The notes beneath the pieces are model-generated. The model was not told the DNA's origin. It saw only the letters and a list, made by a program, of their open reading frames with translations, and did not search any database. Position numbers and translations under genes: made by a program. Shown here in pieces: positions 734 through 17,570 of a DNA stretch of 17,570 nucleotides. The stretch is taken from assembly GCA_038845975.1 (NCBI GenBank), contig JAWBQF010000043.1, positions 1 through 17,570 on the forward strand, in the 5' to 3' direction. Source of the DNA: Candidatus Methanomethylicia archaeon (GTDB lineage: Archaea; Thermoproteota; Methanomethylicia; CALHIW01). The stretch's first letter is position 1; each line of letters begins with the position of its first letter.

Positions 734-1918
734 TTAATATTGAATTGGATACTTTCCATAAATTCTTGCCGCTTCCACAATCGCTTTTATATTTTCAGGT
801 GGTGTATAAGCTCCAACCTCACAAGGAGTCATTACAACTGCTGTCGTGTAAGGTGTCGTATGCTTAATGAAAGTTTTAACCATAGCTTTCACTTCGTCTG
901 GTGTTCCATGCATAAGCAATTGTGTAGTTGGAGAACTCATTGAGCATCTTCTGCCCTTAAATTGTTTAGCAACCCATTTAAACCATTCTGGCCAATCCAT
1001 TTTATATTGCCTTAATGGTGTGTCAAATTGCACAGCCTTGACTGGAATACGCGTGGCCAATCGAATTATTGTTTCTTTTAGGTTCATTCCGCATACATGC
1101 CAAAAAATGTTTTCAAAAATTCTCCTAGCTTTTTCAACAAATATTTCATCATATTCCCCGAATTCCTCCCAATGTTTCGGTCCCCAAGTTCGTCCTCCAC
1201 CCCAACAACAGAAAAATTTGCAACCATTTTTGGCTGCGAACTCTTTATAACTGTCTAAAGCAGCTAACCTTTCTTGTAGAACTAAATCCATATAATCATG
1301 CATTTTTTGCTTCGGTTCAGTTATCATCCACTTTAAGAATCTTTGAACTTCAACTATTGTTTCAGCGTGATTACTTGGAGTTGCAGCTCCAGTGATAATG
1401 GGTACAAAATTATTCATACCTTTTTGAAATTCTAAAAGTTGTTGTAAATGAGGTATAAAATAATCAGCTGCATGACCGTAACCGTATTTCTCCCAAACTT
1501 TATCTTGAAAAAGTTTTATCGCTTCATCAAGCGTTGTTACAACTGGTTTAAAAACTATATAGTCTTTTGGACCCCTAATAATATAATGTTCCTTTCTTTT
1601 TTCTGGAGGTATTAAAGGATCAAGCTCTTCAGAAAGATCAACATACTGCCATATAGCATCCCATCGAAATTCAACCCAAGTTTTAATTAACGCATGCGTT
1701 CTTTTTGCAACAGCATTTTCTCCTTCAAAAATCTCCCATGCCGTATAACCTTGATAATAACAGCACCAATAATCAGCTTCTGGCGCCACCGGAACTATAT
1801 CTGGTTCTTCTAAGTTAAACGCTTTTTCCATTCTTTCCCAATGCGTCATTTTACCAATATTTTCTATACCCTTAAGTCTTTCGATCCATTCCTTAACAGA
1901 AAGTAATTCTCTAGTCAT
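734..1918 (-). CDS. Uroporphyrinogen decarboxylase-superfamily (MtaA/CmuA/MtvB-like) Zn-dependent corrinoid methyltransferase
   Basis: 394 aa; N-terminal 'ERMEKAF..EEPDIVPV', H274-V-C276 ... C366 Zn triad, 'LLMHGTPDEV' and C-terminal 'TPPENIKAIVEAARIYGKYP'; 4 nt downstream of a corrinoid protein gene whose stop overlaps a GGTGA RBS. Confidence 0.85.
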   Translation of the reverse strand: MTRELLSVKEWIERLKGIENIGKMTHWERMEKAFNLEEPDIVPVAPEADYWCCYYQGYTAWEIFEGENAVAKRTHALIKTWVEFRWDAIWQYVDLSEELDPLIPPEKRKEHYIIRGPKDYIVFKPVVTTLDEAIKLFQDKVWEKYGYGHAADYFIPHLQQLLEFQKGMNNFVPIITGAATPSNHAETIVEVQRFLKWMITEPKQKMHDYMDLVLQERLAALDSYKEFAAKNGCKFFCCWGGGRTWGPKHWEEFGEYDEIFVEKARRIFENIFWHVCGMNLKETIIRLATRIPVKAVQFDTPLRQYKMDWPEWFKWVAKQFKGRRCSMSSPTTQLLMHGTPDEVKAMVKTFIKHTTPYTTAVVMTPCEVGAYTPPENIKAIVEAARIYGKYPIQY

Positions 1919-1922
1919 TTAA

Positions 1923-2591
1923 TCACCATTTTCCTTTTTCTCTTAATAGCTTTTTTATTCCTTCAACAGCCTCCCAAGCATCATTCCAACCTCCATCTGC
2001 TCCCAGTTCTATTGCTTTTTTGCATTCAACAGCTGGTCCCCCGCAAACAATTACTACTTTATCTCTTAATCCTGCATTCTTTAATGTTTCGATAACTTTT
2101 GGAATATTATAAAAAGTTTCGCTCATATAAGTTCCAAGCCCTACAATATCAGCATTATATTCTTTAATAGCCTCCACAAACTTTGTTGGAGGAACATCAA
2201 CTCCTAAATCTATCACTCTTAATCCAAGCTCCGCCGTAAATATAGCTTTTGCTACACTTTTTCCGATTGTATGAATATCACCAAATATAGTTCCAATTAC
2301 CATTGTTCCTGTAAACACATTTTCACTTTTCTTAGCTATTAAAATCGGTTCTATTATTTCCATTCCGGTATAAAATGCATCAGCTGCTACTAGGACTTCT
2401 GGCATAAAAAATTCTAATTCACTCCATTTTTTACCTACAATCTTCATTCCTTCAGCAAGCGCACGAAGAACATCAACAGGATTCATTCTTACTTCTATAG
2501 CTTCTTGCGCTGCCTTCCTAACTGCTTCATTATCTAATGAGACTATTCCATTAATTAATTGTTCTTTAATTTTTTCGAATTTTTCATTCAA
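1923..2591 (-). CDS. Methyltransferase corrinoid (B12-binding) protein, MtaC/MttC/MtvC-like
   Basis: 222 aa; helical cap domain ('LAEGMKIVGKKW..EFFMPEVLVAADAF'), DxHxxG motif 'DIHTIG', 'VIDLGVDVP', 'CGG'; TTG start. Confidence 0.92.
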   Translation of the reverse strand: MNEKFEKIKEQLINGIVSLDNEAVRKAAQEAIEVRMNPVDVLRALAEGMKIVGKKWSELEFFMPEVLVAADAFYTGMEIIEPILIAKKSENVFTGTMVIGTIFGDIHTIGKSVAKAIFTAELGLRVIDLGVDVPPTKFVEAIKEYNADIVGLGTYMSETFYNIPKVIETLKNAGLRDKVVIVCGGPAVECKKAIELGADGGWNDAWEAVEGIKKLLREKGKW

Positions 2592-2629
2592 TTCCTATTT
2601 TGCCCCTAATTATTTGAGTTCTACTTTTA

Positions 2630-2644
2630 GTATATAACCTTTTA
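2630..2644 (-). promoter_or_regulatory. Putative BRE+TATA promoter of the corrinoid/methyltransferase operon
   Basis: Minus strand TAAAAGG-TTATATAC, ~39 nt upstream of the start codon. Confidence 0.45.
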
Positions 2645-2730
2645 TGAGTGAAATGGAAAACTTTTGACTTTAAACAGCTTAAGCTTGAAAGTTAAAAATT
2701 TAGGTGTCTTAAAGAATCAAATCTAAAAGA

Positions 2731-2802: not shown

Positions 2803-4059
2803 TTGGAAAGATTAAAAGTTGGTTTTATAGGAACAGGTTTTGTAAGCGTTTTTCATGCTAGAGCTTTTGTTACTGTAAGAAATGCTGAAATAACTGGTGT
2901 CTGTTCAAGAACAGAGGAAAAGGGAAAAGAATTTGCTGCTTTCTGTGAAAATCTTAGAATTGGGAAACCTAAAGTTTATACTGATTTGGCGGAAATGGTG
3001 AGAGACCCTAATGTTGATGCGGTTTGGATATGCAACCCTAACTTCCTTAGAGTGAACACTGTTAAAACAATAGTTGAAGAAGTTACTCAAGGTAAAGCTG
3101 AATTAAAGGGTGTTTGTTGTGAAAAACCATTAGCACGAAACGTAAAAGAGGCTAAGGAAATTGTGAATCTTATCGAAAAGGCTGGTATACCTCATGGATA
3201 TCTAGAAAATAACGTTTTTATGCCATCTGTTGTGAGAGGGAAAGAAATTATATGGAGGCGAGGAGCTGCCATAGCGGGAAGACCGTATTTAGCTAGAGCT
3301 GCTGAAGAGCATTCTGGCCCGCATTCTTCATGGTTCTGGATTGGCAAAAACACTGGCGGTGGAGTTGCTATGGATATGATGTGTCATAGCCTTGAAGCTG
3401 CACGCTTTCTATTAACTAGTCCAGATGAAGAGAAAGAAGCCCTCACACCTAGAACAGTTAGTGCTGAAATGGCTACCTTAAAATGGGCTACACCAAAATA
3501 TGTAAAAATTCTTAAAGAAAAATGGAAAGGGGAAGTAGATTATGTTAAAGAACCTGCAGAAGATTATGCTAGATCAAGTGTTATTTACGAGACGAGGAAT
3601 GGAGAAATATTAATTACTGAAACGATAAATTCTTGGAGTTTCATGGGACCAGGGATGCGTCTCCTTTTTGAGTTAATTGGACCTGAATATATGATGTACA
3701 TAAATGATCAACAACCATATCTTCATGTATTCTTTAGTCGTGAAGTTAAAGGACCTGCTGGAGAAGACTTTATGGAGAAACAATTGGCTGAACAGGGATT
3801 AATGCCAGTTTTAGATGATGAAAGCTTTGTATATGGTTATCAATGGGAAGATCAACATATGGTTAATTCATTTCTTGATGGAAAAATGCCTCGAGAAAAT
3901 TGGTATGATGGTTTGTTTATAGTAAAGTTACTTATGGCATGTTATATGTCAGCGGAAAGCGGGAGAAAGCTTAGATTTCCACCAGAAGGTATAGAGGATT
4001 TCATACCGAAGGTTCAACAAGGAACGTATAATCCTAGATCTGTTCTTGAAGGAGTATAA
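2803..4059 (+). CDS. Gfo/Idh/MocA-family NAD(P)-dependent sugar/polyol oxidoreductase
   Basis: 418 aa; Rossmann 'VGFIGTGFVS', 'CEKP' motif, 'GGGVAMDMMCH'. Confidence 0.9.
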   Translation: MERLKVGFIGTGFVSVFHARAFVTVRNAEITGVCSRTEEKGKEFAAFCENLRIGKPKVYTDLAEMVRDPNVDAVWICNPNFLRVNTVKTIVEEVTQGKAELKGVCCEKPLARNVKEAKEIVNLIEKAGIPHGYLENNVFMPSVVRGKEIIWRRGAAIAGRPYLARAAEEHSGPHSSWFWIGKNTGGGVAMDMMCHSLEAARFLLTSPDEEKEALTPRTVSAEMATLKWATPKYVKILKEKWKGEVDYVKEPAEDYARSSVIYETRNGEILITETINSWSFMGPGMRLLFELIGPEYMMYINDQQPYLHVFFSREVKGPAGEDFMEKQLAEQGLMPVLDDESFVYGYQWEDQHMVNSFLDGKMPRENWYDGLFIVKLLMACYMSAESGRKLRFPPEGIEDFIPKVQQGTYNPRSVLEGV

Positions 4060-4159
4060 GCTTTTGTTAGTTACTTAAAACCACAACTTTTATTTTTTCC
4101 ACTATAGTACTATAAAGATGAATACGGTTACTTTATTTGTTCATTAGGTGCATAAACTT

Positions 4160-5260
4160 ATGGATCTTACAGAGATTGTTAAAAAGATACGAGCGCCAGA
4201 CCGAAAACCAGATGTGACAGTAATGCATGATTTCTTTCTTGACCACTTTGTCACTTATATTGGAAATGGAGGAACATTTGAATCATATATTAAAAAAATA
4301 AACGAGCTTGCAAAGTTTGGTGGAGGAGAAATTTCAGAGACAAAACAGCAAATATTAAGGGGGGGGAAAGGCTTTAACGCATCCTCGGCATTAGCTTCTT
4401 TAGGAGCTCATGTCCATTATATAGGAAAAACAAGCAAGTTAGGTTTATATTTAATGCAGTTCTTCGCTAAAGGAAAAGATATAGATTTAACTCATGTGAA
4501 AACTACTGGAGAAATGGCAATGACCGTAGCAATAGAACTTAAATATAGTGATAGAATAGTGAATTTAATGTTTAATTATCCTGGATCTGTAGCTGATTTC
4601 AGCTTTGAGGATCTTGAACCTGAAGATTTAAATGTAATAAGAGAAACCGAATATCTTTTATTAACCCAGTGGAGTATGAATACAAGAGGCACAGAACTGG
4701 CGGAAAAAATTTTTGAAATACCTAAGTCTGGTTGCCGAAAATTTTTTGATCCTGGAGATCCTATAAAAAGGAAAGGAGAAATTAAAGAGCTTATTGAACG
4801 TGTTTTTATTCCAAAAAAATTTGATGTACTTGGTGTTAACGAAGGAGAAGCGATATGGTTCGCCTCTTACTTTGATGAAAAATATCTAGATATGGTAAGA
4901 CAAATGAGAATAGAAGAGTTAGGAATTGAATGCGCTAAATGCCTTAGGGATGAGCTTAATATAAGAGTTGATCTTCATACTCCATATTTTTCAGCCTCAA
5001 TAGGTAGGGATGGAGAATGGTTTGTTCCAACCTTTGATGTTAATGTTTTAAGAGTTACTGGAGCAGGAGATGCATGGCAAGCTGGAAACGCTTATGGCGA
5101 ATTAATAGGGCTTGAGCCTGAAGAACGCCTCTTACTGGCTAATGCTACTGCAGCATATTATATCTCTAACCCAAAAGGTGAGCATGGTACTCTTCAAGAA
5201 ATAAAGAAGTTTATAATAAGCACTAAGTTACGTCCATTAAAAATTTATAGAAAGAGTTAG
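4160..5260 (+). CDS. PfkB/ribokinase-family carbohydrate kinase
   Basis: 'GGKGFNASSALASLGA' signature, 'FFDPG', 'NEGEA', anion-hole 'TGAGDAW'. ATG 4160 is preferred (AGGTG RBS at 4146-4150); the ORF track extends to GTG 4148. Confidence 0.88.
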   Translation: MDLTEIVKKIRAPDRKPDVTVMHDFFLDHFVTYIGNGGTFESYIKKINELAKFGGGEISETKQQILRGGKGFNASSALASLGAHVHYIGKTSKLGLYLMQFFAKGKDIDLTHVKTTGEMAMTVAIELKYSDRIVNLMFNYPGSVADFSFEDLEPEDLNVIRETEYLLLTQWSMNTRGTELAEKIFEIPKSGCRKFFDPGDPIKRKGEIKELIERVFIPKKFDVLGVNEGEAIWFASYFDEKYLDMVRQMRIEELGIECAKCLRDELNIRVDLHTPYFSASIGRDGEWFVPTFDVNVLRVTGAGDAWQAGNAYGELIGLEPEERLLLANATAAYYISNPKGEHGTLQEIKKFIISTKLRPLKIYRKS

Positions 5261-5274: not shown

Positions 5275-7158
5275 GTGAAAGGTGTAACAGGCAAAGGTTT
5301 ACGTGTAAACCTCACGGATAAGCATATTGAAGTTTTCAAACTCGATGAAGCTCTTCAATCAACATATCTAGGTGGAGTTGGATTAGCAACTAGAATTTTG
5401 TATGATGAAGGAAAAAGAGTGAATCCGCTTGGATTAAATAATCCATTAATAATGGCTCCAGGCCTTTTAGTTGGAACAGGTTTACCAACAGCTTCTAAAA
5501 CTACATTTATGGCAAAGTCACCATTAACTGGAGGTATTGGAAGATCTACAGTTGGAGCTTGGGCTGGAGTCGCTTTAAAAAAAGCAGGATTTGATATTTT
5601 AATAATTAAGGGAGCCTCAAATGAGCCTTGTCTTATTTATATAGAAGATAGTAACGCATCTATTGAAGTTTGTAATGAAATTTGGGGCTTAAATGTACGT
5701 GAATCCACAAAAACAATTAAGTCACGCTATGGTAATGCTGCAACAGTTGTGATTGGACCTGCTGGAGAAAATCTCAGTAGAATAGCAGGGATAGATTGTG
5801 AAGAACGACAAGCGGCAAGGGGAGGATTAGGAGCAGTGATGGGTTCAAAAAAATTGAAAGCAATAGTTGTAAAGGGAACAAAACAAGTTGAATATGCAAA
5901 TCCAGATGAAGTAAGAGAGCTTGCAGTGAAATGGGGAAAAATCCTTAGTAAAGACCAAAAATCAGAGCTTCAAAAAAAATACGGTACTTCAGAGTTTTAC
6001 GATTGGATGAATATGGATAGAGGTGTTTTCCCAAGCAGAAATTGGCAGTATGGATATTTTAAATTAAGTTATGAAAAACTTAAGGATAACGAAAAGTCTA
6101 AATTAGATCCATATTATTGGGCGCCTATTTATACTGTAAGAAATAAAGCATGTCCACATTGCAATAAGCCATGCGGTAGGATATTTAGAATTAGTTCAGG
6201 AAAATATGCTGGAACAGAGCTTGATGGTCCAGAATACGAAACTATTTATTCTTTAGGAGGCGCTCTTGAAATAGATGATATAGAAGCTGTTGCCAGGTTA
6301 CACATGGAATGTGATCTACTAGGTTTGGATGCAATCTCAGCAGGTTTAACAATTGCTTGGGCTATGGAAGCCTATGAGAAGGGTCTTCTTTCTAAAGAAG
6401 ACACTGATGGGTTAGAACTTAACTTTAGTAATGCTGATGCAGCTCTTGAAGTTCTAAGAAAAATCGCTTTTCGCAAAGGAAAGTTAGGAAGGTTATTAGC
6501 GGATGGCGTTAAATCTGCAAGTGAGCAATTGGGTAAACGCTCTGAAGAGTTTGCAATGCATGTGAAAGGAATGGAGTTACCAGGTTATGATGTAAGAGGA
6601 TTAAAAGGTGTTGGATTATCATTTGCTGTATCTGTACGTGGAGCTGATCATTTAAATGCTATATGCTATTCTGCAGAGCTTAAAGGTTCATGGTGGAAAT
6701 TTAGTGGTGTTGACAGATTTTCAGTGGAAGGAAAAGGTTTCATGGTAAAAATTCATGAAGATATAATGACTTTATATGATATGTTAGGATTATGTAAGTT
6801 TTCTAGAGGTTTCTTTTATGTAGAGGAATTGCCTAGTTTTATAAAGGCGGCTACTGGAAAAGAATTTAAAGTTTCTGAACTTCTTTTAATGGCTGAACGC
6901 GTATACAATTTAGAAAGAGCTTACAATGTTAGAGAAGGATTAACAAGAAAAGATGATACACTACCATATCGAATACTTCATGAGCCAATTCCTGAAGGAG
7001 CATCTAAAGGAAGCCTTATTAAGCCATCTGAACTTGAAAAAATGCTTGATGAATATTATGCTGCTAGAGGATGGTCAAAAGAAGGAATACCAACTAAAGC
7101 AAAATTAATTCAATTAGATTTAGTTAAGGAAGCGGAAGAAGTGGGAGCTAATCATTAA
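5275..7158 (+). CDS. aor: Tungsten-containing aldehyde:ferredoxin oxidoreductase family protein
   Basis: 627 aa; 'KSPLTGG', 'GPAGEN', 'RGGLGAVMGSKKLKAI', CxxCxxxC (CPHCNKPC), 'EYET', 'DLLGLD', 'GADH', 'DMLGLCKF'. Confidence 0.93.
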   Translation: MKGVTGKGLRVNLTDKHIEVFKLDEALQSTYLGGVGLATRILYDEGKRVNPLGLNNPLIMAPGLLVGTGLPTASKTTFMAKSPLTGGIGRSTVGAWAGVALKKAGFDILIIKGASNEPCLIYIEDSNASIEVCNEIWGLNVRESTKTIKSRYGNAATVVIGPAGENLSRIAGIDCEERQAARGGLGAVMGSKKLKAIVVKGTKQVEYANPDEVRELAVKWGKILSKDQKSELQKKYGTSEFYDWMNMDRGVFPSRNWQYGYFKLSYEKLKDNEKSKLDPYYWAPIYTVRNKACPHCNKPCGRIFRISSGKYAGTELDGPEYETIYSLGGALEIDDIEAVARLHMECDLLGLDAISAGLTIAWAMEAYEKGLLSKEDTDGLELNFSNADAALEVLRKIAFRKGKLGRLLADGVKSASEQLGKRSEEFAMHVKGMELPGYDVRGLKGVGLSFAVSVRGADHLNAICYSAELKGSWWKFSGVDRFSVEGKGFMVKIHEDIMTLYDMLGLCKFSRGFFYVEELPSFIKAATGKEFKVSELLLMAERVYNLERAYNVREGLTRKDDTLPYRILHEPIPEGASKGSLIKPSELEKMLDEYYAARGWSKEGIPTKAKLIQLDLVKEAEEVGANH

Positions 7159-7183: not shown

Positions 7184-7846
7184 TTGAGTGGAGTGAAGGT
7201 TGGGGCGTCTATACTTTCTGCACGTTTTTCTCATTTAGCGGATGAAGTAAAAAAAGCAGAAGAAAGCGGTGTAGATTTCCTTCATTTTGATGTAATGGAT
7301 GGAAGTATAACTAATACAATTACATTTGGTCCTATATTAATTAAATCATTAAGAAAATTAAGTTGCTTGCCTTTTGATATACATTGCTATTTGTTAGATC
7401 CTGTGAGGTATATAGAACCACTAATAAATGCTGGTGCAGATTCCATTACAATTCATGTGGAAGCTCTTGGAAAAATTATTTGGGCATTAGATTTAATTAA
7501 GAAGTATGGAGTAAAAGCAGGTATAGCGTTATTGCCTGAGACGCCACCAGTAAGCATATCTCAGGTTTTAGATATGGTAGATTCAGTAACTGTAGTTACA
7601 GTTGATGTAATGAAGAGTAATTCATGGGAATTCATACCTGTGATGGTAAAAAAAATTAAAGAAGTACATGAGCTTATAGATAAGAAAATTTTAAAAATTG
7701 AACTTAAAGTAGATGGAGGAATAAATTTGGGGAATGCACAAAAAGTAATTACTGCTGGTGCCCACTCCTTAATTGTAGGTAATGCATTGTTTAATAGCAA
7801 TGATATGAAAGAAACAGTAAAGTTATTAAAAGGAAGTAATTGTTAA
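7184..7846 (+). CDS. rpe: Ribulose-phosphate 3-epimerase-family protein (divergent active site)
   Basis: 220 aa; 'SILSA', 'HFDVMDG', 'DIH', 'HVE', 'VDGGIN'; metal ligands H34/D36/H67/D177 present; AGGTG RBS at 7171. The PGFGGQ loop is absent, so the symbol indicates family only. Confidence 0.8.
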   Translation: MSGVKVGASILSARFSHLADEVKKAEESGVDFLHFDVMDGSITNTITFGPILIKSLRKLSCLPFDIHCYLLDPVRYIEPLINAGADSITIHVEALGKIIWALDLIKKYGVKAGIALLPETPPVSISQVLDMVDSVTVVTVDVMKSNSWEFIPVMVKKIKEVHELIDKKILKIELKVDGGINLGNAQKVITAGAHSLIVGNALFNSNDMKETVKLLKGSNC

Positions 7847-8742: not shown

Positions 8743-8783
8743 AATTTAATCCCTCTTAAATTTTATTGTAGGGTTAGAAGAAG

Positions 8784-8797
8784 CTAATAAATTTTTG
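8784..8797 (-). promoter_or_regulatory. Putative BRE+TATA promoter of the gnd-like gene
   Basis: Minus strand CAAAAA-TTTATTAG, ~42 nt upstream of ATG. Confidence 0.4.
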
Positions 8798-8835
8798 TGT
8801 TAGTAATTGCTGTTGAATAAAGTATTATTTATAAT

Positions 8836-8850
8836 GAAAAAACTTATAAA
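8836..8850 (+). promoter_or_regulatory. Putative BRE+TATA promoter of the flavoenzyme gene
   Basis: GAAAAAA-CTTATAAA; predicted TSS near 8873. Confidence 0.45.
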
Positions 8851-8908: not shown

Positions 8909-11035
8909 ATGTTTTTGTTTTCTAACCTTAAGTACCCGAATCTTTTCAAGCCAATATGGATAGGAAATATCGAAATAAAAAATAGGATAGTTCATGTCCC
9001 TACAGATATAAGTAGTTCAAATGCTGATGGAAGTGTTAATGAAAGAGTAATACATTATCATGAGGAAATAGCTAAGTCTGGAGTTGGATTAATAGAGGTG
9101 GGAGCTACAACTCCTGATAGTAAAACTGGCCGTCCAACTGTTACATGTCTTGTAGCTGACGATGATAATTATATACCTGGTCTTCATAGGTTAGCTAGAG
9201 CTATGCAACGGTACGGAGCTAAGTGTACAGTACAAATACAGCATCCAGGTAGGCAAGCAGCTATACCAAGGTATGGTCAAGTTTCATGTAGTGATTTGGT
9301 TACGTATCAACCAGCATCAGCTGGACATGAAATAGTATATGCTACAGCTGAGGCTAAAGGAAAGGAAGCTAGAGCTATGACTATTGAGGAAATATACACT
9401 TTGATAGATAAGTTTTCTGAAGCTGCATGGCGGGTTCAACAAGCAGGGTTTGATGGGGTAACACTTCATGCTGCTCATGGATATCTTATAGCTCAATTTA
9501 TGAGTCCATATACAAACAGGAGAAATGATAGATTTGGCGGTTCCTTTGAAAATAGAATGAGATTCCCCCTAGAGATAATAAAAGATATACAAAGAAAATG
9601 CGGTTCAGATTTCCCAATAATATTCCGTTATTCAGCTGATGAATTTGTTCCTGGCGGAAGAACGCTTAACGAAAGCATAAAAATTGCGGAAGTTTTAGAG
9701 AATGCTGGTGTTGCTGCACTTGATATAAGTGCTGGTACCTTTGATACTCCAGGCCCTGTAATGGATCCTATGTATTATCCGGAAGGATGGTGTGTTTACA
9801 TGGCTGAAGCTATTAAAAAAGCAGTTTCTATTCCAGTTATAATCAGTCATAGTCTTAGAGACCCGGGATTTTGTGATAGATTAATAGCAGAAAATAAAAC
9901 TGACATGGTTGGATTCTCAAGACAATTTATAGCAGATCCATATTGGACACTAAAAGCTTACTATGGAAAGACTGAAGATATCAGAAAATGTATTTCATGT
10001 TTAGTTGGATGCTGGCAAGAATCACTTATGATTAAACATGAACTTAAATGCGCAATTAATCCAGCAGTAGGAGATGAAAGATTTTGGAATATACCTAAAG
10101 CTTCTAAAAGAATGCAGATAGCAATAATTGGCGGTGGACCAGCGGGAATGGAAGCTGCTAGGATAGCTAGTTTAAGAGGGCATAAAGTCACAATATTTGA
10201 AAAGGAAGGAGAGCTTGGAGGAGCTATGAAATATTGCTGTATGGTTCCTGGTAAATCAAAGATGAGATGGTACATGGATTGGATAAGAAATCAAATGAAA
10301 AAGTTAAATGTAGAGGTTAATTTAAGAGTTGAACCTTCATTAGATGAATTAAGTAAATATGATTTTGTATTAATTGGTACAGGAGCAAAAAGCTTTAAAC
10401 CAGATATACCTGGAGTAGAAAAAGCAGTTAAATTTGAAGATGTTCTTAGATGTGATAAATTTAATTGTCCATGGCATCCAGGTGATAGACCAGGACCTAT
10501 TGAAGTAGGTGAGAAAGTTTTAATTTGGGGAGATCATTTTGCTGGAGCAGATACAGCAGAAGCCTTAGCTTTTGCTGGAAAAGAAGTTTTCATTGTAACT
10601 GAAAATAAAGAGTTTGCATCAACAATAGAACCTGTACATCGTGATGTTTTAATGAAGAGATTAGCGGGAAAAAATGGTGAAGGCCTTACCGGTAAAACTG
10701 CTAATATACCTGTGAGAATAATTACAAACTCTACTGTTCATGAGATTTCAAATAATAAAGTTGTAATTCGAGATAATAAATTCGTTAAACGAGAAATAAG
10801 TATTGATACAGTAGTGCTCGCTCATACAGAGCCTAATATAGGTCCATATAAGGAGTTAATAAAGGCTGGAGTTAAAGCAGTACTCATGGGAGATGCTGTA
10901 AAAGTTAGGAACCTTCTTCATGCTACTAAGGAAGGAGCTCATTACGCTCTAGAAGTAGATGGTGACACAATAATGAATGCAAACTTGCAACCTTGCCGTG
11001 CTCTTCCATTGGAAATACAATTACTCTTTACTTAA
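8909..11035 (+). CDS. Old-yellow-enzyme family FMN/4Fe-4S/FAD oxidoreductase (FadH/BaiCD/TMADH-type architecture)
   Basis: 'YPNLFKPIWIGNIEIKNRI', 'QIQHPGRQ', 'HAAHGYLIAQFMSPYTNRRNDRFGGSFENRMRF', Fe-S 'CISCLVGC..CAINP', 'IIGGGPAGMEAA'. Start uncertain (TTG 8873, ATG 8909 or TTG 8915). Confidence 0.9.
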   Translation: MFLFSNLKYPNLFKPIWIGNIEIKNRIVHVPTDISSSNADGSVNERVIHYHEEIAKSGVGLIEVGATTPDSKTGRPTVTCLVADDDNYIPGLHRLARAMQRYGAKCTVQIQHPGRQAAIPRYGQVSCSDLVTYQPASAGHEIVYATAEAKGKEARAMTIEEIYTLIDKFSEAAWRVQQAGFDGVTLHAAHGYLIAQFMSPYTNRRNDRFGGSFENRMRFPLEIIKDIQRKCGSDFPIIFRYSADEFVPGGRTLNESIKIAEVLENAGVAALDISAGTFDTPGPVMDPMYYPEGWCVYMAEAIKKAVSIPVIISHSLRDPGFCDRLIAENKTDMVGFSRQFIADPYWTLKAYYGKTEDIRKCISCLVGCWQESLMIKHELKCAINPAVGDERFWNIPKASKRMQIAIIGGGPAGMEAARIASLRGHKVTIFEKEGELGGAMKYCCMVPGKSKMRWYMDWIRNQMKKLNVEVNLRVEPSLDELSKYDFVLIGTGAKSFKPDIPGVEKAVKFEDVLRCDKFNCPWHPGDRPGPIEVGEKVLIWGDHFAGADTAEALAFAGKEVFIVTENKEFASTIEPVHRDVLMKRLAGKNGEGLTGKTANIPVRIITNSTVHEISNNKVVIRDNKFVKREISIDTVVLAHTEPNIGPYKELIKAGVKAVLMGDAVKVRNLLHATKEGAHYALEVDGDTIMNANLQPCRALPLEIQLLFT

Positions 11036-11278
11036 TTTAAATTTTATTCCAGATATTATAAGCAATATAAACATAAATAAAATACCGGTACACCATAAAT
11101 GAAATAGTATTGAATATTGCCATGTTTTAAGAAGAACTATTCCATCAATAATTCCAAATATTGCTAAAAACCATAAAATTCCCTTAATAACTTTAGGAAC
11201 GACTTTTGTTGTATAAACTATAAATATTATGAATAACCCAAATGCGAGTAATCCAACTATAGCTAAAGATTCATACAT
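11021..11278 (-). CDS. Small integral membrane protein (about 3 TM), last gene of the ABC operon
   Basis: 85 aa, three hydrophobic segments, GGGTGA RBS, 16 nt after the ATPase stop. Confidence 0.7.
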   Translation of the reverse strand: MYESLAIVGLLAFGLFIIFIVYTTKVVPKVIKGILWFLAIFGIIDGIVLLKTWQYSILFHLWCTGILFMFILLIISGIKFKLSKE

Positions 11279-11294
11279 TCTCTCTTCACCCTTA

Positions 11295-12374
11295 TTATAT
11301 TAAAGCCTTCCCTTTCTTATCGAAAATGTGTATTTTTTCTGGATTTAAATCTAACCACATTTGTTTATCTATTTTATACTCTACCCAAGGATCCCCTATA
11401 ACTTCAAGAACTTTTTTATCATTTGTTTCTACCTTTATTAAAGTTTTAGAACCAATAGATTCGTAATCCACTATAGTAACCTTTATTGCACGTTCGGAAT
11501 GCGGTTCATCAGATAAATATAAATCTTCAGGTCTAACTCCAACCAAAAACTCTGTTGAAGTTCTAAGCAACTCAGCATAATTACTTACATCTATCTTAAA
11601 AGGTCCAATTAAATAGGCTTTTCCATTTTTCTCTTCATAAAAGTATTCATTTAGATTCATTGGAGGTGAACCAATCATTTGAGCAACCACATTATTAGCG
11701 GGATGATTATAAAGCTCATTAGGGGAACCAATTTGTTCTACACATCCATTAAATAGTACACATATTCTTTCAGCCATAGACATTGCTTCTGCTTGATCAT
11801 GAGTTGAAAATATAATCGTTTGTCCTATCTCTTTTGCTAACCGCTTAAGTTCAACTCTCATATTTATTCTAAGTAAAGCGTCTATATTGCTTAATGGTTC
11901 ATCAAGCAGGATCACTTTAGGTCTCCTAACAATAGCTCTTGCTAAAGCTACTCTTTGTCTTTCACCTCCACTAAAAGTAGCAGGTTTCCTGTCCAAAAGA
12001 TGCTCTATTTTAAGCAATTTAGCAACTCTCATTACGCTTTCTTTTATTTCACTTTCACTTATTCTTCTAATCCTTAATGGGAATGCTATATTCTCATAAC
12101 CAGTTTTGTCTGGAAATAAAACAAGATTTTCAAATTGCATTGAAACATCTCTATAACGTGGAGGTAAATCATTCACTAATTGGTTATCAATATATACATT
12201 TCCTTCATCAGCTTTAACTACACCAGCTATAATTTTAAGCGTTGTAGTTTTTCCTGCACCTGGTGGACCTAATATACAAAAAAATTCCTTGTCTTTCACC
12301 TCAAAACTTACGTTCTGTAATACTTTCTTTCCTCTGAAGCTTTTACTTACATTCTCAAATTTTACAGAAGCCAT
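11295..12374 (-). CDS. CUT1 sugar ABC transporter ATP-binding protein (MalK-like, subunit 2)
   Basis: Walker A GPPGAGKTT, signature FSGGERQR, Walker B LLDEP, H-loop THDQ, C-terminal TOBE region with 'GVRPE'. Confidence 0.93.
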   Translation of the reverse strand: MASVKFENVSKSFRGKKVLQNVSFEVKDKEFFCILGPPGAGKTTTLKIIAGVVKADEGNVYIDNQLVNDLPPRYRDVSMQFENLVLFPDKTGYENIAFPLRIRRISESEIKESVMRVAKLLKIEHLLDRKPATFSGGERQRVALARAIVRRPKVILLDEPLSNIDALLRINMRVELKRLAKEIGQTIIFSTHDQAEAMSMAERICVLFNGCVEQIGSPNELYNHPANNVVAQMIGSPPMNLNEYFYEEKNGKAYLIGPFKIDVSNYAELLRTSTEFLVGVRPEDLYLSDEPHSERAIKVTIVDYESIGSKTLIKVETNDKKVLEVIGDPWVEYKIDKQMWLDLNPEKIHIFDKKGKALI

Positions 12375-12389
12375 TAAAATAAACCCCCT

Positions 12390-13478
12390 TTATACAATAA
12401 CTTTTTCGGTTTTCTTGTCTATTATATGAATTTTATTGATATCAAATTCTATATATTTTCTTTCTCCAGGATTAGCAATAAATGTTCGTGAAGTAGAAAT
12501 TCTCATTAAGTACTGCCCTAGAGTAGCATCAACTATTGCTTCACTTCCAAGAGGTTCATAAGCTTCTATAATTACCTCTATAGAGTTTTTTGATACAGGT
12601 TCGTGAAAAATTTTAATATTTTCTGGTCTTACTCCTAAAATTAGTTCATTGCTGGAGCATTCTTTTAAGATTATTTCTCGGTATTTTGAAACATCAATTT
12701 TAGCAATTCCAAAATCAAGATATCCTCCATCTTTATCAACGAAACTACAATCTAGAAAATTCATTGGAGGGGCTCCAATAAACCCAGCTACAAATTTTGT
12801 CTTTGGAGTATTATATATTTCTTTTGGAGTACCATATTGGTGTAAAACACCTAAATTCATTACAGCTATTTTATCTGAAATAGCAATGGCTTCAAGTTGA
12901 TCATGCGTTACATATATTACTGTTTGTTTAATAGTTCTTTGTAACCTTCTTATCTCTCTTCTCATTTTAGCTCTAAGAGCAGCATCTAAATTGCTAAGAG
13001 GTTCATCAAGCAAGAGAATTGAAGGATTTGTTACAAGTGTTCTAGCTAATGCGACACTTTGGAGCTCACTTTGACTCATATGTTTTGGCATTAAATTTAA
13101 TATACCCTGAATATTAAGAAGTTCAGCTACCTCCATAACTCTTTTACGAATTTCTTCTTTAGGCACTTTTCTAATTTTTAATCCAAAAGCTATATTATCA
13201 AAAGCGTTCATTGTTGGAAATATAGCATAATCTTGGAATACAAGCCCAACATTTCTTTCTTGAGGTTTTAACTCATTTACTACTTTATCATTAAAATATA
13301 TTTCCCCACTTGTTGGTGAAGTAAGACCAGCTATCATTCTTAATGTGGTAGTTTTCCCGCATCCTGATGGCCCTAGGAAAGATACAAGAGTGCCACTATC
13401 AATCGTAAGGGTTAAATCGTTAACAGCTACGAGCTTTCCAAATTCTTTTCTAAGTTTCACTAATTTTACTTCAGTCAA
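12390..13478 (-). CDS. CUT1 sugar ABC transporter ATP-binding protein (MalK-like, subunit 1, degenerate signature)
   Basis: Walker A GPSGCGKTT, Q-loop VFQDY, Walker B LLLDEP, THDQ, 'GVRPE'; signature is MSQSE. Confidence 0.93.
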   Translation of the reverse strand: MTEVKLVKLRKEFGKLVAVNDLTLTIDSGTLVSFLGPSGCGKTTTLRMIAGLTSPTSGEIYFNDKVVNELKPQERNVGLVFQDYAIFPTMNAFDNIAFGLKIRKVPKEEIRKRVMEVAELLNIQGILNLMPKHMSQSELQSVALARTLVTNPSILLLDEPLSNLDAALRAKMRREIRRLQRTIKQTVIYVTHDQLEAIAISDKIAVMNLGVLHQYGTPKEIYNTPKTKFVAGFIGAPPMNFLDCSFVDKDGGYLDFGIAKIDVSKYREIILKECSSNELILGVRPENIKIFHEPVSKNSIEVIIEAYEPLGSEAIVDATLGQYLMRISTSRTFIANPGERKYIEFDINKIHIIDKKTEKVIV

Positions 13479-13481
13479 TTT

Positions 13482-14348
13482 TTATCCCCTAATCGCTCCG
13501 AAAGTTAAGCCTCTTACTAGATGTTTCTGAATAATTAATGAAAAGACTATAAGCGGTATAACTACTACAGTACCAAATGCAGCCTGTGGGCCATAAAGTT
13601 GACCAGAATATGTAAAGAAGTTTTTAACTTGAACTGGTATTGTTATTATTGCGCCATGCGTCAATATTAATGCCAATAAGAATTCGCACCAATTTAATAT
13701 AAATACAAAAAGAGCGGTAGCTGCGATTCCTCCTCTAATTAATGGTAAGGTAACTTTAAAATGAGATTCTAATGCAGACATACCGTCTATTTGAGCGGCT
13801 TCTTCAAGTTCTTTAGGTATTTCTTCTATAAAACTAGCAATCATCCAAGTTGAATATGGAGATGTAAAACATGCATAAGCTAGAATTAACCCTATATATG
13901 TATCTACTAGCCCTATAATTGAGTATAGTATTAAGAGAGGTATTGCCGCAACTATAGGTGGAGCCATGCGAGCTGCAAGAAGAAATATAGGAAAGAATTC
14001 CCCCCCCATTCTGTAACGACTTATTCCAAAAGCTGCTAGTAACCCAATTACTAATGATAGAATTGTCCCTCCAGCACTACATATGGCACTATCTATTATA
14101 GATTTAGTAACATTAGGAACCCTAGCTACAAAGCCTCCACCAAGCGCTCCACCAGTAAAGATGCTTATATAATTATCAATTGCTAATTTCTCTGGAATAA
14201 AGATAGGGGGGTAAGTAACCCATTCTCCAATGGACTTCAAAGAAGTGGATATTATCCAAAATATTGGGAATAATGTTAGCACTAATCCTATTAAAATTAA
14301 GATCCAACCACTTATTGTTTGTTTTTCAGCTACTTCTTCTACACTCAT
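13482..14348 (-). CDS. Carbohydrate ABC transporter permease (MalG-like)
   Basis: 288 aa multi-TM, EAA loop 'ELEEAAQIDGMS', C-terminal 'QKHLVRGLTFGAIRG'. Confidence 0.92.
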   Translation of the reverse strand: MSVEEVAEKQTISGWILILIGLVLTLFPIFWIISTSLKSIGEWVTYPPIFIPEKLAIDNYISIFTGGALGGGFVARVPNVTKSIIDSAICSAGGTILSLVIGLLAAFGISRYRMGGEFFPIFLLAARMAPPIVAAIPLLILYSIIGLVDTYIGLILAYACFTSPYSTWMIASFIEEIPKELEEAAQIDGMSALESHFKVTLPLIRGGIAATALFVFILNWCEFLLALILTHGAIITIPVQVKNFFTYSGQLYGPQAAFGTVVVIPLIVFSLIIQKHLVRGLTFGAIRG

Positions 14349-15259
14349 CTTTCTCTCCTTCTTAAAATTGATCTAGCAGCAGGTGAAGTTATAAACAAAA
14401 CAAGAATTAAAATAATCATAGCTATTGATGAACCATATCCAAGCAGGCCAGCATGAATAGCTGCTATATATGTGTAGATTGATAATGTTTCTGTTGCGAA
14501 TCCAGGTCCTCCCCCAGTTAAAATAAATGGCATATCAAATAGTTTTATAGCTTCTATAAACCTAATTACTAAAGCTATAATCATAATATTCCTTAGCATC
14601 GGAAGTTTTATGTACCGAATTATTTGCCATTCAGAGGCCCCTAATACTTTAGCAGCTTCTATCGGGCTTTGAGGTAAGGAAACCATACCAGAAAATAATA
14701 TTAGAAACATAAATGGTGTCCATTGCCAAACATCCGTAAGTATTATTGCAATCATCGCGGATCCTGCTCTAGAAAGCCAAGGGTAGATAATTTCTCGCCC
14801 TATTAACTTTCCGAATATAAAGTTAATTGGACCTGTTGGCTGGAACATCATCCAAAAGTTATATCCTACAACAACAGGCATAAAAAACATTGGAATTAAA
14901 AACATTGTTATAAGAATTTTTTTCCCTATAAAAGCTCTTGAAAATAGTAAGGCACCAATTAATCCTAAAAGGAATTCTAAACTAACTGCTATACCTGCCA
15001 TTAGAAAAGTTCTACCAACAGAAAGCCAAAGTCTAATATCTTTAAATACTCTAATAAATCCTAAACCATAGTTAAAATGAGCAAACCACCATTCTCCTCG
15101 TCCAGGCTCCCAATCAGAGAAACTAAGGTAAATCTCTAGAAGAAATGGAAAGAGCAATAATAAGAAAAGTAATACGTAAATTGGACCATGAAAGATTAAG
15201 AATCTACCTGAAGGAGTTTCACCAAATTTTAGGATTGCCTCTTTCCATTTATTCTTCAT
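14345..15259 (-). CDS. Carbohydrate ABC transporter permease (MalF-like)
   Basis: 304 aa multi-TM, 'DVWQWTPFMFL', EAA loop 'IEAAKVLGAS', 'LTGGGPG'; ATGA overlap with the next permease. Confidence 0.92.
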   Translation of the reverse strand: MKNKWKEAILKFGETPSGRFLIFHGPIYVLLFLLLLFPFLLEIYLSFSDWEPGRGEWWFAHFNYGLGFIRVFKDIRLWLSVGRTFLMAGIAVSLEFLLGLIGALLFSRAFIGKKILITMFLIPMFFMPVVVGYNFWMMFQPTGPINFIFGKLIGREIIYPWLSRAGSAMIAIILTDVWQWTPFMFLILFSGMVSLPQSPIEAAKVLGASEWQIIRYIKLPMLRNIMIIALVIRFIEAIKLFDMPFILTGGGPGFATETLSIYTYIAAIHAGLLGYGSSIAMIILILVLFITSPAARSILRRRER

Positions 15260-15469: not shown

Positions 15470-17116
15470 TTAAAGATATGGATTCATTAACGGTGCAAGT
15501 TTGGGACCATACCCTTTATGCTCTGGAGGACCGAATGTTCTAAGCGCTTGTATCTGCTTTTCTCTTCCTATACGATCTGTAATCGCTTCCCAAGCGTCAT
15601 GCACAGCTTTCATTCCTTCTTTTGGAGATTCACCACCAGTTAAAACCGCATTAACATGTTTTGTTAATACGTCATCATATTCAGGCGCTCCAAACAAGTT
15701 GATATCTGGTACAATCCAATCAAAGTTTTCCTTTAAAACATCAGTATAGTATTTTCCTCCATAAGATGCTTGAACAAGTGGATCATCAAAATGACCTACT
15801 CTGAAAGGTTCTAGAAAACCTGCTGGATCACATACAACCTTTGCGCTAACCTCAGGATCAGCAAAGTATGTGAGTAAAGCAAAAGCTAATTCTGGACGCT
15901 TAGACCAACGATTTACGAACATTATATGAGATTCACCAATCATTGCTGCATGTCTTACTCGTCCATCTTTAGTTGGGAACCCTGGACATAAAGCATTCTT
16001 TACTTTAGTTCCAAGACCTTTAGCTTCACAGTATTTCTTTAATGATGCCCAAGATAATAGCATTGCTATTTTACCTCTAGCGAAATAGTCATATGCGGTA
16101 TCCCATATAGCTGTTTTAACCTCTGGTGGACAAACGTTATCTACCAACCATTTTAGTAATTCAAGAGCTTCTAATGCTGGTGGTGTATCTATCTGTGGTA
16201 CCATGTTTTCATCAAAGTAATCGACACCTCTTGATGCAAGTGCTTGCTTATAGTTTCTTCTATTCCATGCGTATGGAACATAAACCCATGTTCCATACAT
16301 TTCAGGAGGTCTAGTGAAGAATTCTGCTATATCCTTAAATTCTTTCCATGTTTTAGGTGGTTTTAATTCATATCCATATTTATCATAAAAAGCTTTCTGT
16401 TCTTTAGGATCTTCAAATAAGTCAGCTCTATAATGATTTGTCCATAAATCGTAATCGTACACTATACCATATAATTTACCCATGTAACAGTTCACACCAG
16501 TGTAAAAGGCTGGAGCTGGAGGTGAGGGGGGTTCATCTTTCCATTGCGGTTGATACCTTTGATAATAATTAGCCGGAGGGGCTTCAGGATCAAGAACCAA
16601 TCCTTTTTCAACAAATGTACCTAAATAATGTTGTGGACACAGAAGTATCAAATCATAAGCACCAGAATGTTCTACCGCTTCAGCTGTGTACTTTGGAACT
16701 ATATCCTCCCAAGCTATAGTCACATATTTAACTTTTAATCCTGTAGCATCAGTAAATTCTTTAAAATATTTAGGATCAAAGTGTCCTTCAGATCCAGGAG
16801 TTACGGAGATGACTAATGTTGTTCCTTTAGCTTCAGGAAATGTTTCTAAATACATAAGAGCTCCATTAATTGCCCTTTCTTTAGGAGTAGCACCAGAAGG
16901 TACTGGAAAAGTTGTTTTATAGTCATATGTTGGCTTTGGTGTTGTTGTTGCTGTTATTGTTTCTGTTTTTGTTATTGTTTTTACAGCTGCTGGTGGTTTG
17001 CTTGCTAAATATCCTGCTAAACCCCAACCTATAGCTGCAGCAACAGCTAAACCACCAACAGCCCCCAAATACTTACGCCTAGAAACAGCCTTCTCTTCCT
17101 TTTTTTCTTCACTCAT
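15470..17116 (-). CDS. Sugar ABC transporter substrate-binding protein, Tat-exported and N-terminally anchored
   Basis: 548 aa; twin-arginine 'SRRKYL', hydrophobic helix, Thr-rich linker, CUT1 SBP motifs 'F...TGLKVKY', 'YRADLFEDP..F..KYGYEL.PPKTW.EF.DIAEFFT'. Confidence 0.92.
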   Translation of the reverse strand: MSEEKKEEKAVSRRKYLGAVGGLAVAAAIGWGLAGYLASKPPAAVKTITKTETITATTTPKPTYDYKTTFPVPSGATPKERAINGALMYLETFPEAKGTTLVISVTPGSEGHFDPKYFKEFTDATGLKVKYVTIAWEDIVPKYTAEAVEHSGAYDLILLCPQHYLGTFVEKGLVLDPEAPPANYYQRYQPQWKDEPPSPPAPAFYTGVNCYMGKLYGIVYDYDLWTNHYRADLFEDPKEQKAFYDKYGYELKPPKTWKEFKDIAEFFTRPPEMYGTWVYVPYAWNRRNYKQALASRGVDYFDENMVPQIDTPPALEALELLKWLVDNVCPPEVKTAIWDTAYDYFARGKIAMLLSWASLKKYCEAKGLGTKVKNALCPGFPTKDGRVRHAAMIGESHIMFVNRWSKRPELAFALLTYFADPEVSAKVVCDPAGFLEPFRVGHFDDPLVQASYGGKYYTDVLKENFDWIVPDINLFGAPEYDDVLTKHVNAVLTGGESPKEGMKAVHDAWEAITDRIGREKQIQALRTFGPPEHKGYGPKLAPLMNPYL

Positions 17117-17145
17117 AAAGAGACCCTCCAGTAAGGAGGTCTCAT
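17113..17145 (-). other. Candidate leaderless uORF (MRPPYWRVSL*) with SD-sequestering hairpin
   Basis: ATG 22 nt after the TATA box; stop overlaps the SBP start (ATGA); GAGACCTCC/GGAGGGTCTC stem at 17120-17143. Confidence 0.45.
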
Positions 17146-17166
17146 AATAATTTTTGTTTTTTACTC

Positions 17167-17181
17167 TATTTAAATCTTTCG
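17167..17181 (-). promoter_or_regulatory. BRE+TATA promoter of the SBP gene
   Basis: Minus strand CGAAAGA-TTTAAATA, a canonical archaeal promoter; predicted TSS ~17145. Confidence 0.6.
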
Positions 17182-17373
17182 ATGATTAATAAAAAAGGAA
17201 GTAATGTAGTTTACTGTAAAATAATACTATGCAAGACAAACTGTATTACTATTAATAAAAGTTTTTATAAGTAAGTAGGTTTTTTCAAAAACTTTCAAAA
17301 TATCTTCTTCCAAAAATAAATTCCAAACAAATATAAGTTATTAATTATAAATTTAATTATTGAGGTTAAAAAC

Positions 17374-17570
17374 TTGAGATATTCTTATTTTGAAAATTAT
17401 GGTTTCAAGTTGCCATATGGAGAGGAAGTGATTAAAACTGCAGGTCAAGTTGTTCCAGGAGCAGCTTTTGTGGATATTAGAGCTCAAGCTTTAAGGCTTC
17501 CTCCTGAAAAGCTTTTGGAAAGACTTAAGAAACCTTATGAACCTAAGTTCTCGGCTGGGATTTGGTTTTT
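17374..17570 (+). CDS. 5' part of a probable xylose-isomerase-like TIM-barrel sugar isomerase (runs off the window)
   Basis: Open frame from TTG 17374 (RBS GAGGT 17362-17366; alternative GTG 17428) to the window edge: ...AFVDIRAQALRLPPEKLLERLKKPYEPKFSAGIWF. From recall this resembles the N-terminus of atypical thermophile xylose isomerases (FVD.RAQ...EELL....KFS.GIW). Confidence 0.6.
   Translation, partial: MRYSYFENYGFKLPYGEEVIKTAGQVVPGAAFVDIRAQALRLPPEKLLERLKKPYEPKFSAGIWF

Follow-up and report, generated by a model that had tools for sequence, protein, structure and literature searches.

The stretch of DNA described here (hereafter, the window; 17,570 nucleotides) is the entire 17.6-kb contig C43 (NCBI GenBank JAWBQF010000043.1) of a Candidatus Methanomethylicia archaeon (assembly GCA_038845975.1; genome G000, 2.77 Mb in 76 contigs, 93% complete and 4.3% contaminated), and the DNA runs that bear it are all hot-spring metagenomes. 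Two adjacent minus-strand genes in it encode a methyltransferase of the uroporphyrinogen decarboxylase (UroD) fold with a zinc motif (MT; 394 amino acids (aa), positions 734–1918) and a corrinoid protein (Corr; 222 aa, 1923–2591). Our best explanation overall, to which we assign a probability of about 0.42, is that MT and Corr form a module that demethylates an imported, methylated carbohydrate-like compound feeding the sugar cluster next to them. The pathway would begin with the CUT1-type ATP-binding cassette (ABC) importer of the window, which would take up the candidate compound (an O-methyl sugar or uronate, or a methyl cyclitol). MT, as the substrate-side methyltransferase (MT1), would move the methyl group from this small-molecule donor onto Co(I) of Corr. 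From there a methyltransferase of the MtrH type, whose gene lies in another part of the genome, would hand it to a pterin (tetrahydromethanopterin (H4MPT) or tetrahydrofolate (H4F)); cobalt that had become oxidised would be reduced again by an ATP-dependent activase of the RACo type, whose gene is likewise outside the window. The demethylated backbone would then be oxidised and phosphorylated, and the conserved cluster of ~14.5 kb would serve to import and break down a sugar, sugar acid or cyclitol of a non-standard kind. What we observe, and give below, is which genes are present, the fold and motifs, the neighbouring genes and the distribution; what we infer is that MT acts as MT1, which way the methyl group flows and, above all, which compound donates it. 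The gene map is based on a list of open reading frames (ORFs) and on Pfam and NCBIfam scans, and all of the genes named in an initial annotation of this DNA were recovered in it.

MT matched the Pfam URO-D family with 47 bits. With models of the MtaA and CmuA families it scored 38–50 bits against cut-offs of 235–400, and so failed the curated cut-offs of both (TIGR01463, 46.3 against 235.4 bits; NF040654, 38.6 against 400). Residues H274, C276 and C366, which are invariant across 44 aligned members, align to the HICG and PGCG segments of MtaA (Protein Data Bank (PDB) entry 4ay7), residues that we take to be the zinc ligands of that enzyme, indicating that the MtaA-type H-x-C...C zinc motif is present. 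In MtaA and CmuA this type of zinc site is used for thiol or halide chemistry. An AlphaFold (AF2) model of MT had a pLDDT of 94.4, and a Foldseek search with the model returned MtaA 4ay7 as the best match (TM 0.79; 16–17% identity in the structural alignment), with uroporphyrinogen decarboxylases next. A weak N-terminal profile match to CdmB (9rui) was also observed (E 3e-6, ~60 residues only), and no PDB or NCBIfam model of an aromatic O-demethylase MT1 (MtvB, OdmB or MtoB) matched MT. Judged from its sequence, MT is a predicted UroD-fold zinc-type methyltransferase, yet one outside the MtaA/CmuA family as NCBI defines it. The initial annotation had read the two genes as a corrinoid protein and a UroD-fold zinc methyltransferase, and the domains, the zinc motif and the fold all bear this out.

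A word-indexed search for homologues of MT gave 141 matches, with PF01208 in all matches listed. The identity was 75–87% in a few archaeal records and 45–58% in many sequences from Planctomycetota, Verrucomicrobiota, Acidobacteriota, Armatimonadota and Sumerlaeota and in two Peptococcaceae. The edge of this group was sharp: among 1.84 billion cluster representatives (50% clustering), only 19 had E ≤ 1e-30, and the next relatives scored ~60 bits. A protein atlas search with MT found generic URO-D clusters only. MT thus belongs to a sharply bounded, uncharacterised subfamily. No fused form of 691–2000 aa was found at E ≤ 1e-20, which is weak evidence; in the metagenome locus L066, the Corr and MT frames run through as a single ORF. 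(Labels of this form denote bacterial or metagenome loci; G384, G492, G480 and G510 are other archaeal genomes.)

Corr, which is of the MtaC/MtbC type, consists of a cap domain (PF02607, B12-binding_2) and a B12-binding Rossmann domain (PF02310), scored 153 bits with TIGR02370 and contains the D-x-H-x-x-G motif as GDIHTIG. We compared 13 window proteins by tblastn with 49 bacterial genome loci that carry MT. A Corr homologue adjoins MT in 43 of them; four of the remaining six are cut by contig ends (L022, L026, L051 and L056), and two are true misses (L018 and L057). Corr likewise lies beside MT in each of the 10 other loci of archaeal type that include upstream sequence. The genes around this pair vary. 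In the archaeal-type loci other than the window, RACo follows MT in 10 of 10. In 23 of the 49 bacterial loci the third conserved neighbour, mostly just downstream, is a stand-alone protein of the MetH activation-domain type: 22 of these 23 were aligned (L043:11843–12820 was left out), all 22 match PF02965, and their profile matches the stand-alone protein of T. maritima (1j6r, E 9e-18). These bacterial proteins (e.g. L038:12125–12826) end in an invariant C-x2-C-x4-C, a possible binding site for a metal or a cluster. The bacterial module is a self-contained unit of two or three genes with variable surroundings. The second methyltransferase of the loci also changes. It is MtrH in genome G492 and in contigs L066, L067, L069, L071 and L072. 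Ca. Formimonas warabiya (L052) has a Pterin_bind protein together with RACo, the acidobacterial L030 a protein of the MtaA/CmuA family (322 bits, cut-off 244) and L042 a homocysteine S-methyltransferase. L038 has a second URO-D gene in a position similar to that of L030, and blastp clustering found URO-D-type neighbours in four loci in total.

Because the MT/Corr pair stays constant across lineages that differ in their acceptor enzyme and reactivation system, MT is likely to be the substrate-side methyltransferase. We consider it very probable that the module is the MT1 and the carrier of a four-component corrinoid demethylase. The partner genes can also be read in the opposite direction, with the UroD-fold enzyme acting on the acceptor side as MtaA does and carrying the methyl group from methyl-cobalamin to homocysteine or another low-molecular-weight thiol, in a biosynthetic module for non-canonical methionine synthesis or thiol methylation. 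The zinc motif and the best structural match of MT are both those of MtaA, the MetH activation-domain protein is present in nearly half of the bacterial loci, and homoserine dehydrogenase or aspartate kinase genes (L018, L020 and L057) or MTHFR (L058) lie nearby. In Planctomycetota, the L042 genes (8266–11892) are ordered homocysteine S-methyltransferase, Corr, UroD-fold MT and MetH activation-domain protein, an arrangement that suggests a MetH-like assembly with a UroD-fold enzyme in place of the pterin module, and with it methionine synthesis from another methyl donor. A second thiol-side enzyme would be redundant in L042, however, because the homocysteine S-methyltransferase is already there, and likewise in L030, L038, L043 and L059, where the operon already contains a second MtaA-family or related URO-D protein. 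Moreover, the partner in archaea and Firmicutes is a pterin methyltransferase, which leaves these loci with no donor-side enzyme unless MT fills that role. An acceptor-side function of MT is accordingly improbable in our estimation.

No MetH-type parts were found in the window's archaeon by tblastn. Its genome does encode, outside the window, four MtrH-like proteins, two RACo proteins, nine URO-D family proteins and ~10 corrinoid proteins, in agreement with the initial annotation, which had placed the acceptor methyltransferase and the corrinoid activator outside this DNA. Contig C26 of G000 carries an island (~7600–28900) of two URO-D genes, two RACo genes, one MtrH gene and one corrinoid gene, from which the activase and the acceptor enzyme for the module probably come. 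Without an adjacent activase and acceptor methyltransferase, MT and Corr could instead be inactive or decaying cargo: where RACo stands in every other archaeal-type locus, the window has 733 non-coding bases and then the contig end. We regard such decay as very improbable, since both ORFs are intact, all of the invariant residues of the family are kept, and genes for the missing functions exist at other places in the genome. A further conserved ORF, of ~110 aa, lies between MtrH and Corr in lineages B and C of the archaea, as defined below (L066:2686–3018, L062:5104–5436, L064:12902–13261 and L067/L069 8864–9196). It is absent from the window, and these small conserved ORFs upstream of Corr have no Pfam match.

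Of 62 genomes of the window's class, only the window's own contained MT, and in a sample of the phylum it was detected in 2 of 401 genomes. Among 401 sampled genomes of the class of G384, it was present in two members of the same family, G384 (81% identity) and G492 (76%), and the G492 protein is identical to one labelled Bathyarchaeia by NCBI. A metagenome scan added eight archaeal-type loci (74–80%). Grouped by MT identity, the resulting eleven loci make up five lineages: A (the window), B (G384 and L066), C (G492 and L067–L069), D (L070–L072) and E (L073). In a quick tree search with SH-aLRT support only, the archaeal MTs formed a single clade (SH-aLRT 100) nested among bacterial sequences; the nesting is tentative, because the outgroup branches are very long.

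The sugar connection of the module rests on the neighbourhoods of these archaeal loci. In the window, Corr and a gene for a Gfo/Idh/MocA-type NAD(P) sugar or cyclitol oxidoreductase (Gfo; 2803–4059, plus strand) are divergent neighbours that share a 211-bp intergenic region (2592–2802), as had been proposed from the sequence of this DNA. In L073, the order is ATPase, ATPase, permease, permease, solute-binding protein (SBP), then Corr-MT-RACo, then a gene for an aldehyde:ferredoxin oxidoreductase (AOR) family protein, with the transporter divergent from the module. In L072, the genes for MTTB, a xylose-isomerase-like protein and MtrH precede Corr-MT-RACo, and a 125-aa ORF, Gfo and a homologous CUT1 transporter follow. 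The transporter proteins of the window are 41–42% (SBP), 48–54% (permeases) and 48–62% (ATPases) identical to those of L072 and L073. A homologous CUT1 system thus adjoins the module in three of the five archaeal lineages, each time in a different arrangement; summed over the three linked lineages, AOR occurs in all of them and Gfo in two. In L071, AOR flanks the module on both sides and is accompanied by an inositol-3-phosphate-synthase-like (Ino1-like) gene; an IolE-like TIM barrel lies by the module in L070; and in lineage B a xylulokinase-like FGGY kinase and TIM barrels similar to psicose epimerase and IolO are nearby. Genes of sugar type (xylose-isomerase-like TIM barrels, the FGGY kinase or the Ino1-like gene) are in this way found beside the module in G384, L066, L070, L071 and L072. 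The module and the sugar cluster also co-occur in the genomes of the window, G384 and G492: contig C27 of G492 carries the entire orthologous cluster (SBP, two ATPases, two permeases and the flavoenzyme; Gfo, a PfkB-type kinase, AOR and an Rpe-like epimerase; and a Gnd-like dehydrogenase) at 53–84% identity, and contig C1 of G384 carries most of it.

Other observations weigh against this connection, and several of them would fit an alternative that we consider a serious possibility, although still short of an even chance: that MT and Corr are a genuine MT1/corrinoid pair whose donor is not a carbohydrate (methoxylated aromatics, methanol, methylated sulfur compounds or a halomethane), brought next to the sugar genes by co-transfer or island formation. 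The module and the sugar cluster are on separate contigs in both G384 (C16 and C1) and G492 (C12 and C27). Gfo, PfkB, AOR, Gnd, the flavoenzyme, the permeases and SBP were absent from all 49 bacterial loci by tblastn, where Rpe gave one weak match and the ATPases generic ABC matches only. Carbohydrate-type Pfam families were counted within ~5 kb in 22 of these loci; the family scans of neighbours were made in part on ORFs of at least 160 aa within 4.5 kb, with the three conserved clusters excluded. We treat this manual tally as background, because the phyla are rich in such genes, the count had no background control, and Gfo-type neighbours, at gene positions −10 to +4, were 4–10 genes away and never within three of MT. 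Other bacterial neighbours suggest a role in the metabolism of amino acids or methionine: the homoserine dehydrogenase or aspartate kinase genes named above, threonine dehydratase genes (L011 and L012) and the homocysteine methyltransferase of L042. Among the archaea, lineage C (G492 and L067–L069) has no sugar genes by the module save a fucose-isomerase-like gene 4–5 kb away in L069, and in G492, L067 and L069 the module is part of a self-contained MtrH-Corr-MT-RACo cluster with an EamA transporter. The flanks of L070 and L071 differ from those of L072 despite 94% identity of MT. SBP fragments occur in G480, which has no MT orthologue, and G510 has a 44% identical SBP homologue without MT.

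Some further features favour another donor. The Firmicutes loci L050 and L052 contain IclR, Amidohydro_2, RACo and a pterin methyltransferase and resemble aromatic O-demethylase clusters, S-adenosylmethionine (SAM)-dependent O-methyltransferases of the catechol type adjoin the module in L047 and L017, and the zinc site, of the type used on thiols or halides, and the weak N-terminal resemblance to CdmB are in keeping with this alternative. Against it speaks the homologous CUT1 system, an immediate or near neighbour of the module in three MT lineages and three gene orders, and by our estimate chance adjacency within 10 kb in genomes of ~2 Mb has a probability of ~1% per genome. Queries with the SBP and permeases of L072 and L073 matched only contig C43 in the window's genome, indicating that this is the sole transporter of its type there, and sugar-type isomerase, kinase and dehydrogenase genes recur by the module in lineages B and D. 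The synteny of the methyl-transfer genes with the sugar genes that had been anticipated is therefore seen in archaea, as a link to the transporter, and is lacking in the bacterial loci and in G384 and G492. It is plausible, at somewhat less than even odds, that the CUT1 system next to the module imports the donor and that this donor is a carbohydrate-like compound. The archaeal module–transporter link favours the proposed import and demethylation of a methylated sugar or cyclitol; the bacteria have the module without the sugar set.

The window as a whole seems foreign to the class of its archaeon, which is also what the co-transfer alternative would predict. SBP was found in 1 of the 62 genomes of that class and in none of the other 61, and among the 401 genomes of G384's class copies of at least 75% identity were confined to G384, G492 and, as fragments, G480. 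The window genes are 51–84% identical to those of G384 and G492 (median ~74%), whereas the best matches of 48 flanking genes of G384 and G492 in the window's genome have a median of ~41%. Given these medians, the patchy occurrence and the tentative nesting of the archaeal MTs among bacterial sequences, both the module and the sugar cluster were probably transferred into the class, and the window probably joins two horizontally acquired units. The GC content of contig C43 (34.6%) fits that of the genome (33.8%), but only one of 59 contigs has a less typical tetranucleotide profile, so mis-binning of C43 is a possible alternative to transfer, and the adjacency seen in the window could be that of one transferred island beside a tRNA-like element; both points count against a functional link. 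The foreign genes of C43 directly adjoin this element (385–510, plus strand), which has GGGGCTG...CAGCCCC acceptor arms, a GCCGG-TTCAAAT-CCGGC T-arm and an encoded CCA, and which by eye could be read as a tRNA-Pro(UGG) interrupted twice, by an intron in the D-loop and by another that follows position 37. Neither ARAGORN (with and without introns) nor Rfam called a tRNA at ~385–510. The element is common to other organisms, because its depth in the DNA runs is 10–15 times that of the remainder of the contig.

The adjacency of Corr and Gfo itself is not an assembly chimera at that point, because the junction is bridged with 0 differences by a 6582-nucleotide (nt) contig of run X1 (possibly the source sample) and is also spanned by a 712-nt contig of run X7, from a separate study; in mapping such contigs, joints with sides of 20–30 letters were disregarded. 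In the spacer between the two genes, TATA-like and Shine–Dalgarno-like elements were seen by eye only, and no significant motif is held in common with other promoters. An 11-mer present in this spacer and in that between the permease and SBP genes was considered as a shared operator and rejected as unconvincing (with at most 1 mismatch it has 4 matches where 1.14 would be expected, a count attained in 8 of 200 shuffles). Contigs of the RNA library X9 cover SBP (1447 nt, 8 differences), the flavoenzyme, Gnd, one permease, the PfkB/AOR junction and part of Gfo. The stretch 587–2344, where the MT and Corr genes lie, had no X9 contig, a result that cannot prove silence, as these are contigs and the library may contain DNA.

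The transporter on which the preferred reading depends is encoded on the minus strand by genes for two different MalK-type ABC ATPases (11295–13478), two CUT1-type permeases (13482–15259) and an SBP of 548 aa (15470–17116; SBP_bac_1 and SBP_bac_8). The SBP_bac_1 domain, the two BPD_transp_1 permeases and a MalK-type ATPase with a C-terminal OB/TOBE domain are those of a CUT1 importer. The nearest solved SBP structures are the trehalose/maltose-binding protein 1eu8, the maltose-binding MalE3 and a sorbitol SBP, and the SBP is 77–78% identical in G384 and G492 and 41–42% in L072 and L073. Two distinct MalK-type ATPase genes with ~40% mutual identity are present instead of the usual one, and the pair is kept in every homologous locus seen (G384, G492, L072 and L073). 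An ORF of 85 codons (11021–11278, minus strand) closely follows the ATPase genes and shares bases with the end of the flavoenzyme gene; its translation looks strongly hydrophobic and may be a small membrane protein.

The enzymes of the sugar cluster are consistent with a non-standard substrate. Gfo is closest to the NCBIfam model IolG, at 74.5 bits and well under the cut-off, and is 75–78% identical in G384 and G492 and 32% in L072. It is followed on the plus strand by a PfkB-family sugar or sugar-acid kinase (4148–5260), for which the sole PDB match is the 2-keto-3-deoxygluconate (KDG) kinase 1v19 (E 6.6e-6) and the best models are of IolC and KDG-kinase types, with low scores (65–66% identity in G492), and by the AOR family protein (5275–7158; AFOR_N 229 bits and AFOR_C 439 bits; 74% in G492), for which tungsten is not readable from the sequence. 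The cluster also contains an Rpe-family epimerase with a changed phosphate-loop region (7184–7846, plus strand), a short dehydrogenase similar to 6-phosphogluconate dehydrogenase (6PGDH) (Gnd-like; 7843–8742, minus strand) and a flavoenzyme of old yellow enzyme (OYE) and Pyr_redox_2 domains, of FadH/BaiCD type (8873–11035, plus strand; 81% in G492). These assignments come from Pfam and NCBIfam, with alignments for Rpe and Gnd.

The Gnd-like protein passes the short-6PGDH model TIGR00872 (356.5 against a cut-off of 297.2). In alignment with the 6PGDH 4e21, it has NGVLYA in place of NGIEYG: the Lys is retained and the Glu position is Leu. We take the Glu of the K-M-V-H-N-G-I-E-Y segment to be the general-acid catalytic residue of 6PGDH, and the Gnd-like protein is then probably a non-decarboxylating dehydrogenase for another hydroxy-acid. 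The same change is found in G384 (C1:131938–132840) and G492 (C27:22739–23638). The Rpe-like protein scores 181.8 with NF004076 (cut-off 165) and 195.7 with TIGR01163 (cut-off 212.6). Compared with Rpe 1rpx, RFVPN is changed to SITNT, HLM to HCY and NPGFGGQ to DVMKSNSWE; the metal and catalytic motifs H-x-D and V-D-G-G are retained, and the G-F-G-G-Q loop is replaced, which may point to a non-phosphorylated or otherwise different substrate. These changes are also kept in the orthologues of G384 and G492, and for this reason we regard the two proteins as specialised enzymes and not as products of decay. The altered Gnd and Rpe active sites that the initial annotation had noted are thus real. 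The modified pentose-phosphate-like route that it had proposed is doubtful, since the presumed general-acid Glu and the G-F-G-G-Q loop are missing, which makes a standard pentose-phosphate reading unlikely as well; a route of sugar-acid or cyclitol type is as good a guess as any, and only a guess. At the contig end, a xylose-isomerase-like TIM-barrel gene is cut after its N-terminal part (17374–17570, plus strand). The open-ended ORF of 65 aa (17374–17568) itself has no family match in Pfam or NCBIfam. It has 12 longer homologues (~209–430 aa, 58–93% identity); PF01261 is present in 8 of them and two are named xylose isomerase at source, which supports the earlier reading of a probable sugar isomerase. 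With its variant Gnd-like and Rpe-like enzymes and its two-ATPase CUT1 system, the conserved ~14.5-kb cluster is an uncharacterised pathway in itself.

The corrinoid methyltransferase systems known so far act on methanol, methylamines, quaternary amines, methyl-thiols, halomethanes and methoxy-aromatics, and the module resembles several of them in part. It has the UroD TIM-barrel fold and the H-x-C...C motif of MtaA (4ay7) and the MtaABC system, whereas MT is ~50 residues longer than MtaA and its partner genes point to the donor side rather than to coenzyme M (CoM). With the aromatic O-demethylases (an MtvB/OdmB/MtoB-type MT1, a corrinoid protein, a pterin methyltransferase (MT2) and RACo) it shares the logic of four components, and the full set of MT, Corr, RACo and a pterin or MtrH methyltransferase is clustered in L052, G492, L066 and L072. 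The archaeal neighbours are, however, of sugar type and not aromatic-acid genes, and the zinc motif of MT is of the MtaA type. In the chloromethane system CdmBCA, the MT1 (CdmB, 9rui) is reportedly a UroD-superfamily protein of ~430 aa that works with a corrinoid protein and a pterin MT2; it belongs to a different subfamily from MT, the similarity being limited to the ~60 residues mentioned above. The bacterial modules resemble a split MetH (T. maritima 1j6r) in their stand-alone activation-domain protein and, in L042, in the homocysteine S-methyltransferase module, and differ from it in that a UroD-fold enzyme replaces the pterin-binding module.

In the article texts covered by a literature search, supplements excluded, no corrinoid demethylase for methylated sugars or cyclitols was described, nor was this subfamily. 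The passages found in a study of pinitol identify no bacterial demethylase (PMC9788770), and those found in a metaproteomic study of DCMF do not mention the L052 cluster (PMC9768040). As described in the parts of the articles seen, corrinoid methyltransferase systems from the same kinds of organisms include the bathyarchaeial MtgB, a lignin-aromatic methyltransferase of ~300 aa without homology to known methyltransferases (PMC10989822), and the type 1 mlp clusters, in which several Mlps per cluster are ~30% identical to MtaA and MtbA (PMC10418091); MT, by comparison, is a 394-aa, single-copy member of the URO-D superfamily and is far from MtaA. The bacterial-type MT1 reported in the part of the former article seen, from 31 of 297 Bathyarchaeia metagenome-assembled genomes (PMC10989822), may bear on the present subfamily.

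A bolder reading, tempting if rather unlikely, is that the subfamily as a whole represents the first corrinoid demethylase for O-methylated carbohydrates or methyl cyclitols, a portable MT1 and Corr cassette plugged into whatever one-carbon (C1) acceptor the host provides (H4MPT or H4F, homocysteine or another thiol). The users of the cassette would then be polysaccharide-degrading Planctomycetota, Verrucomicrobiota, Acidobacteriota and Armatimonadota together with a few hot-spring and sediment archaea. Sugar methyl ethers would be a source of C1 units for them, and removal of the methyl group would unblock the backbone for a non-standard oxidative pathway. The subfamily is widespread in major polysaccharide-degrading phyla, and two small genes and a known type of activase make a clonable candidate, with which the oxygenase-free demethylation of methyl-ether sugars becomes directly testable. 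Even if the donor were not a sugar, the association of one MT1/Corr pair with four acceptor methyltransferases and two reactivation systems would be a case of modular C1 evolution.

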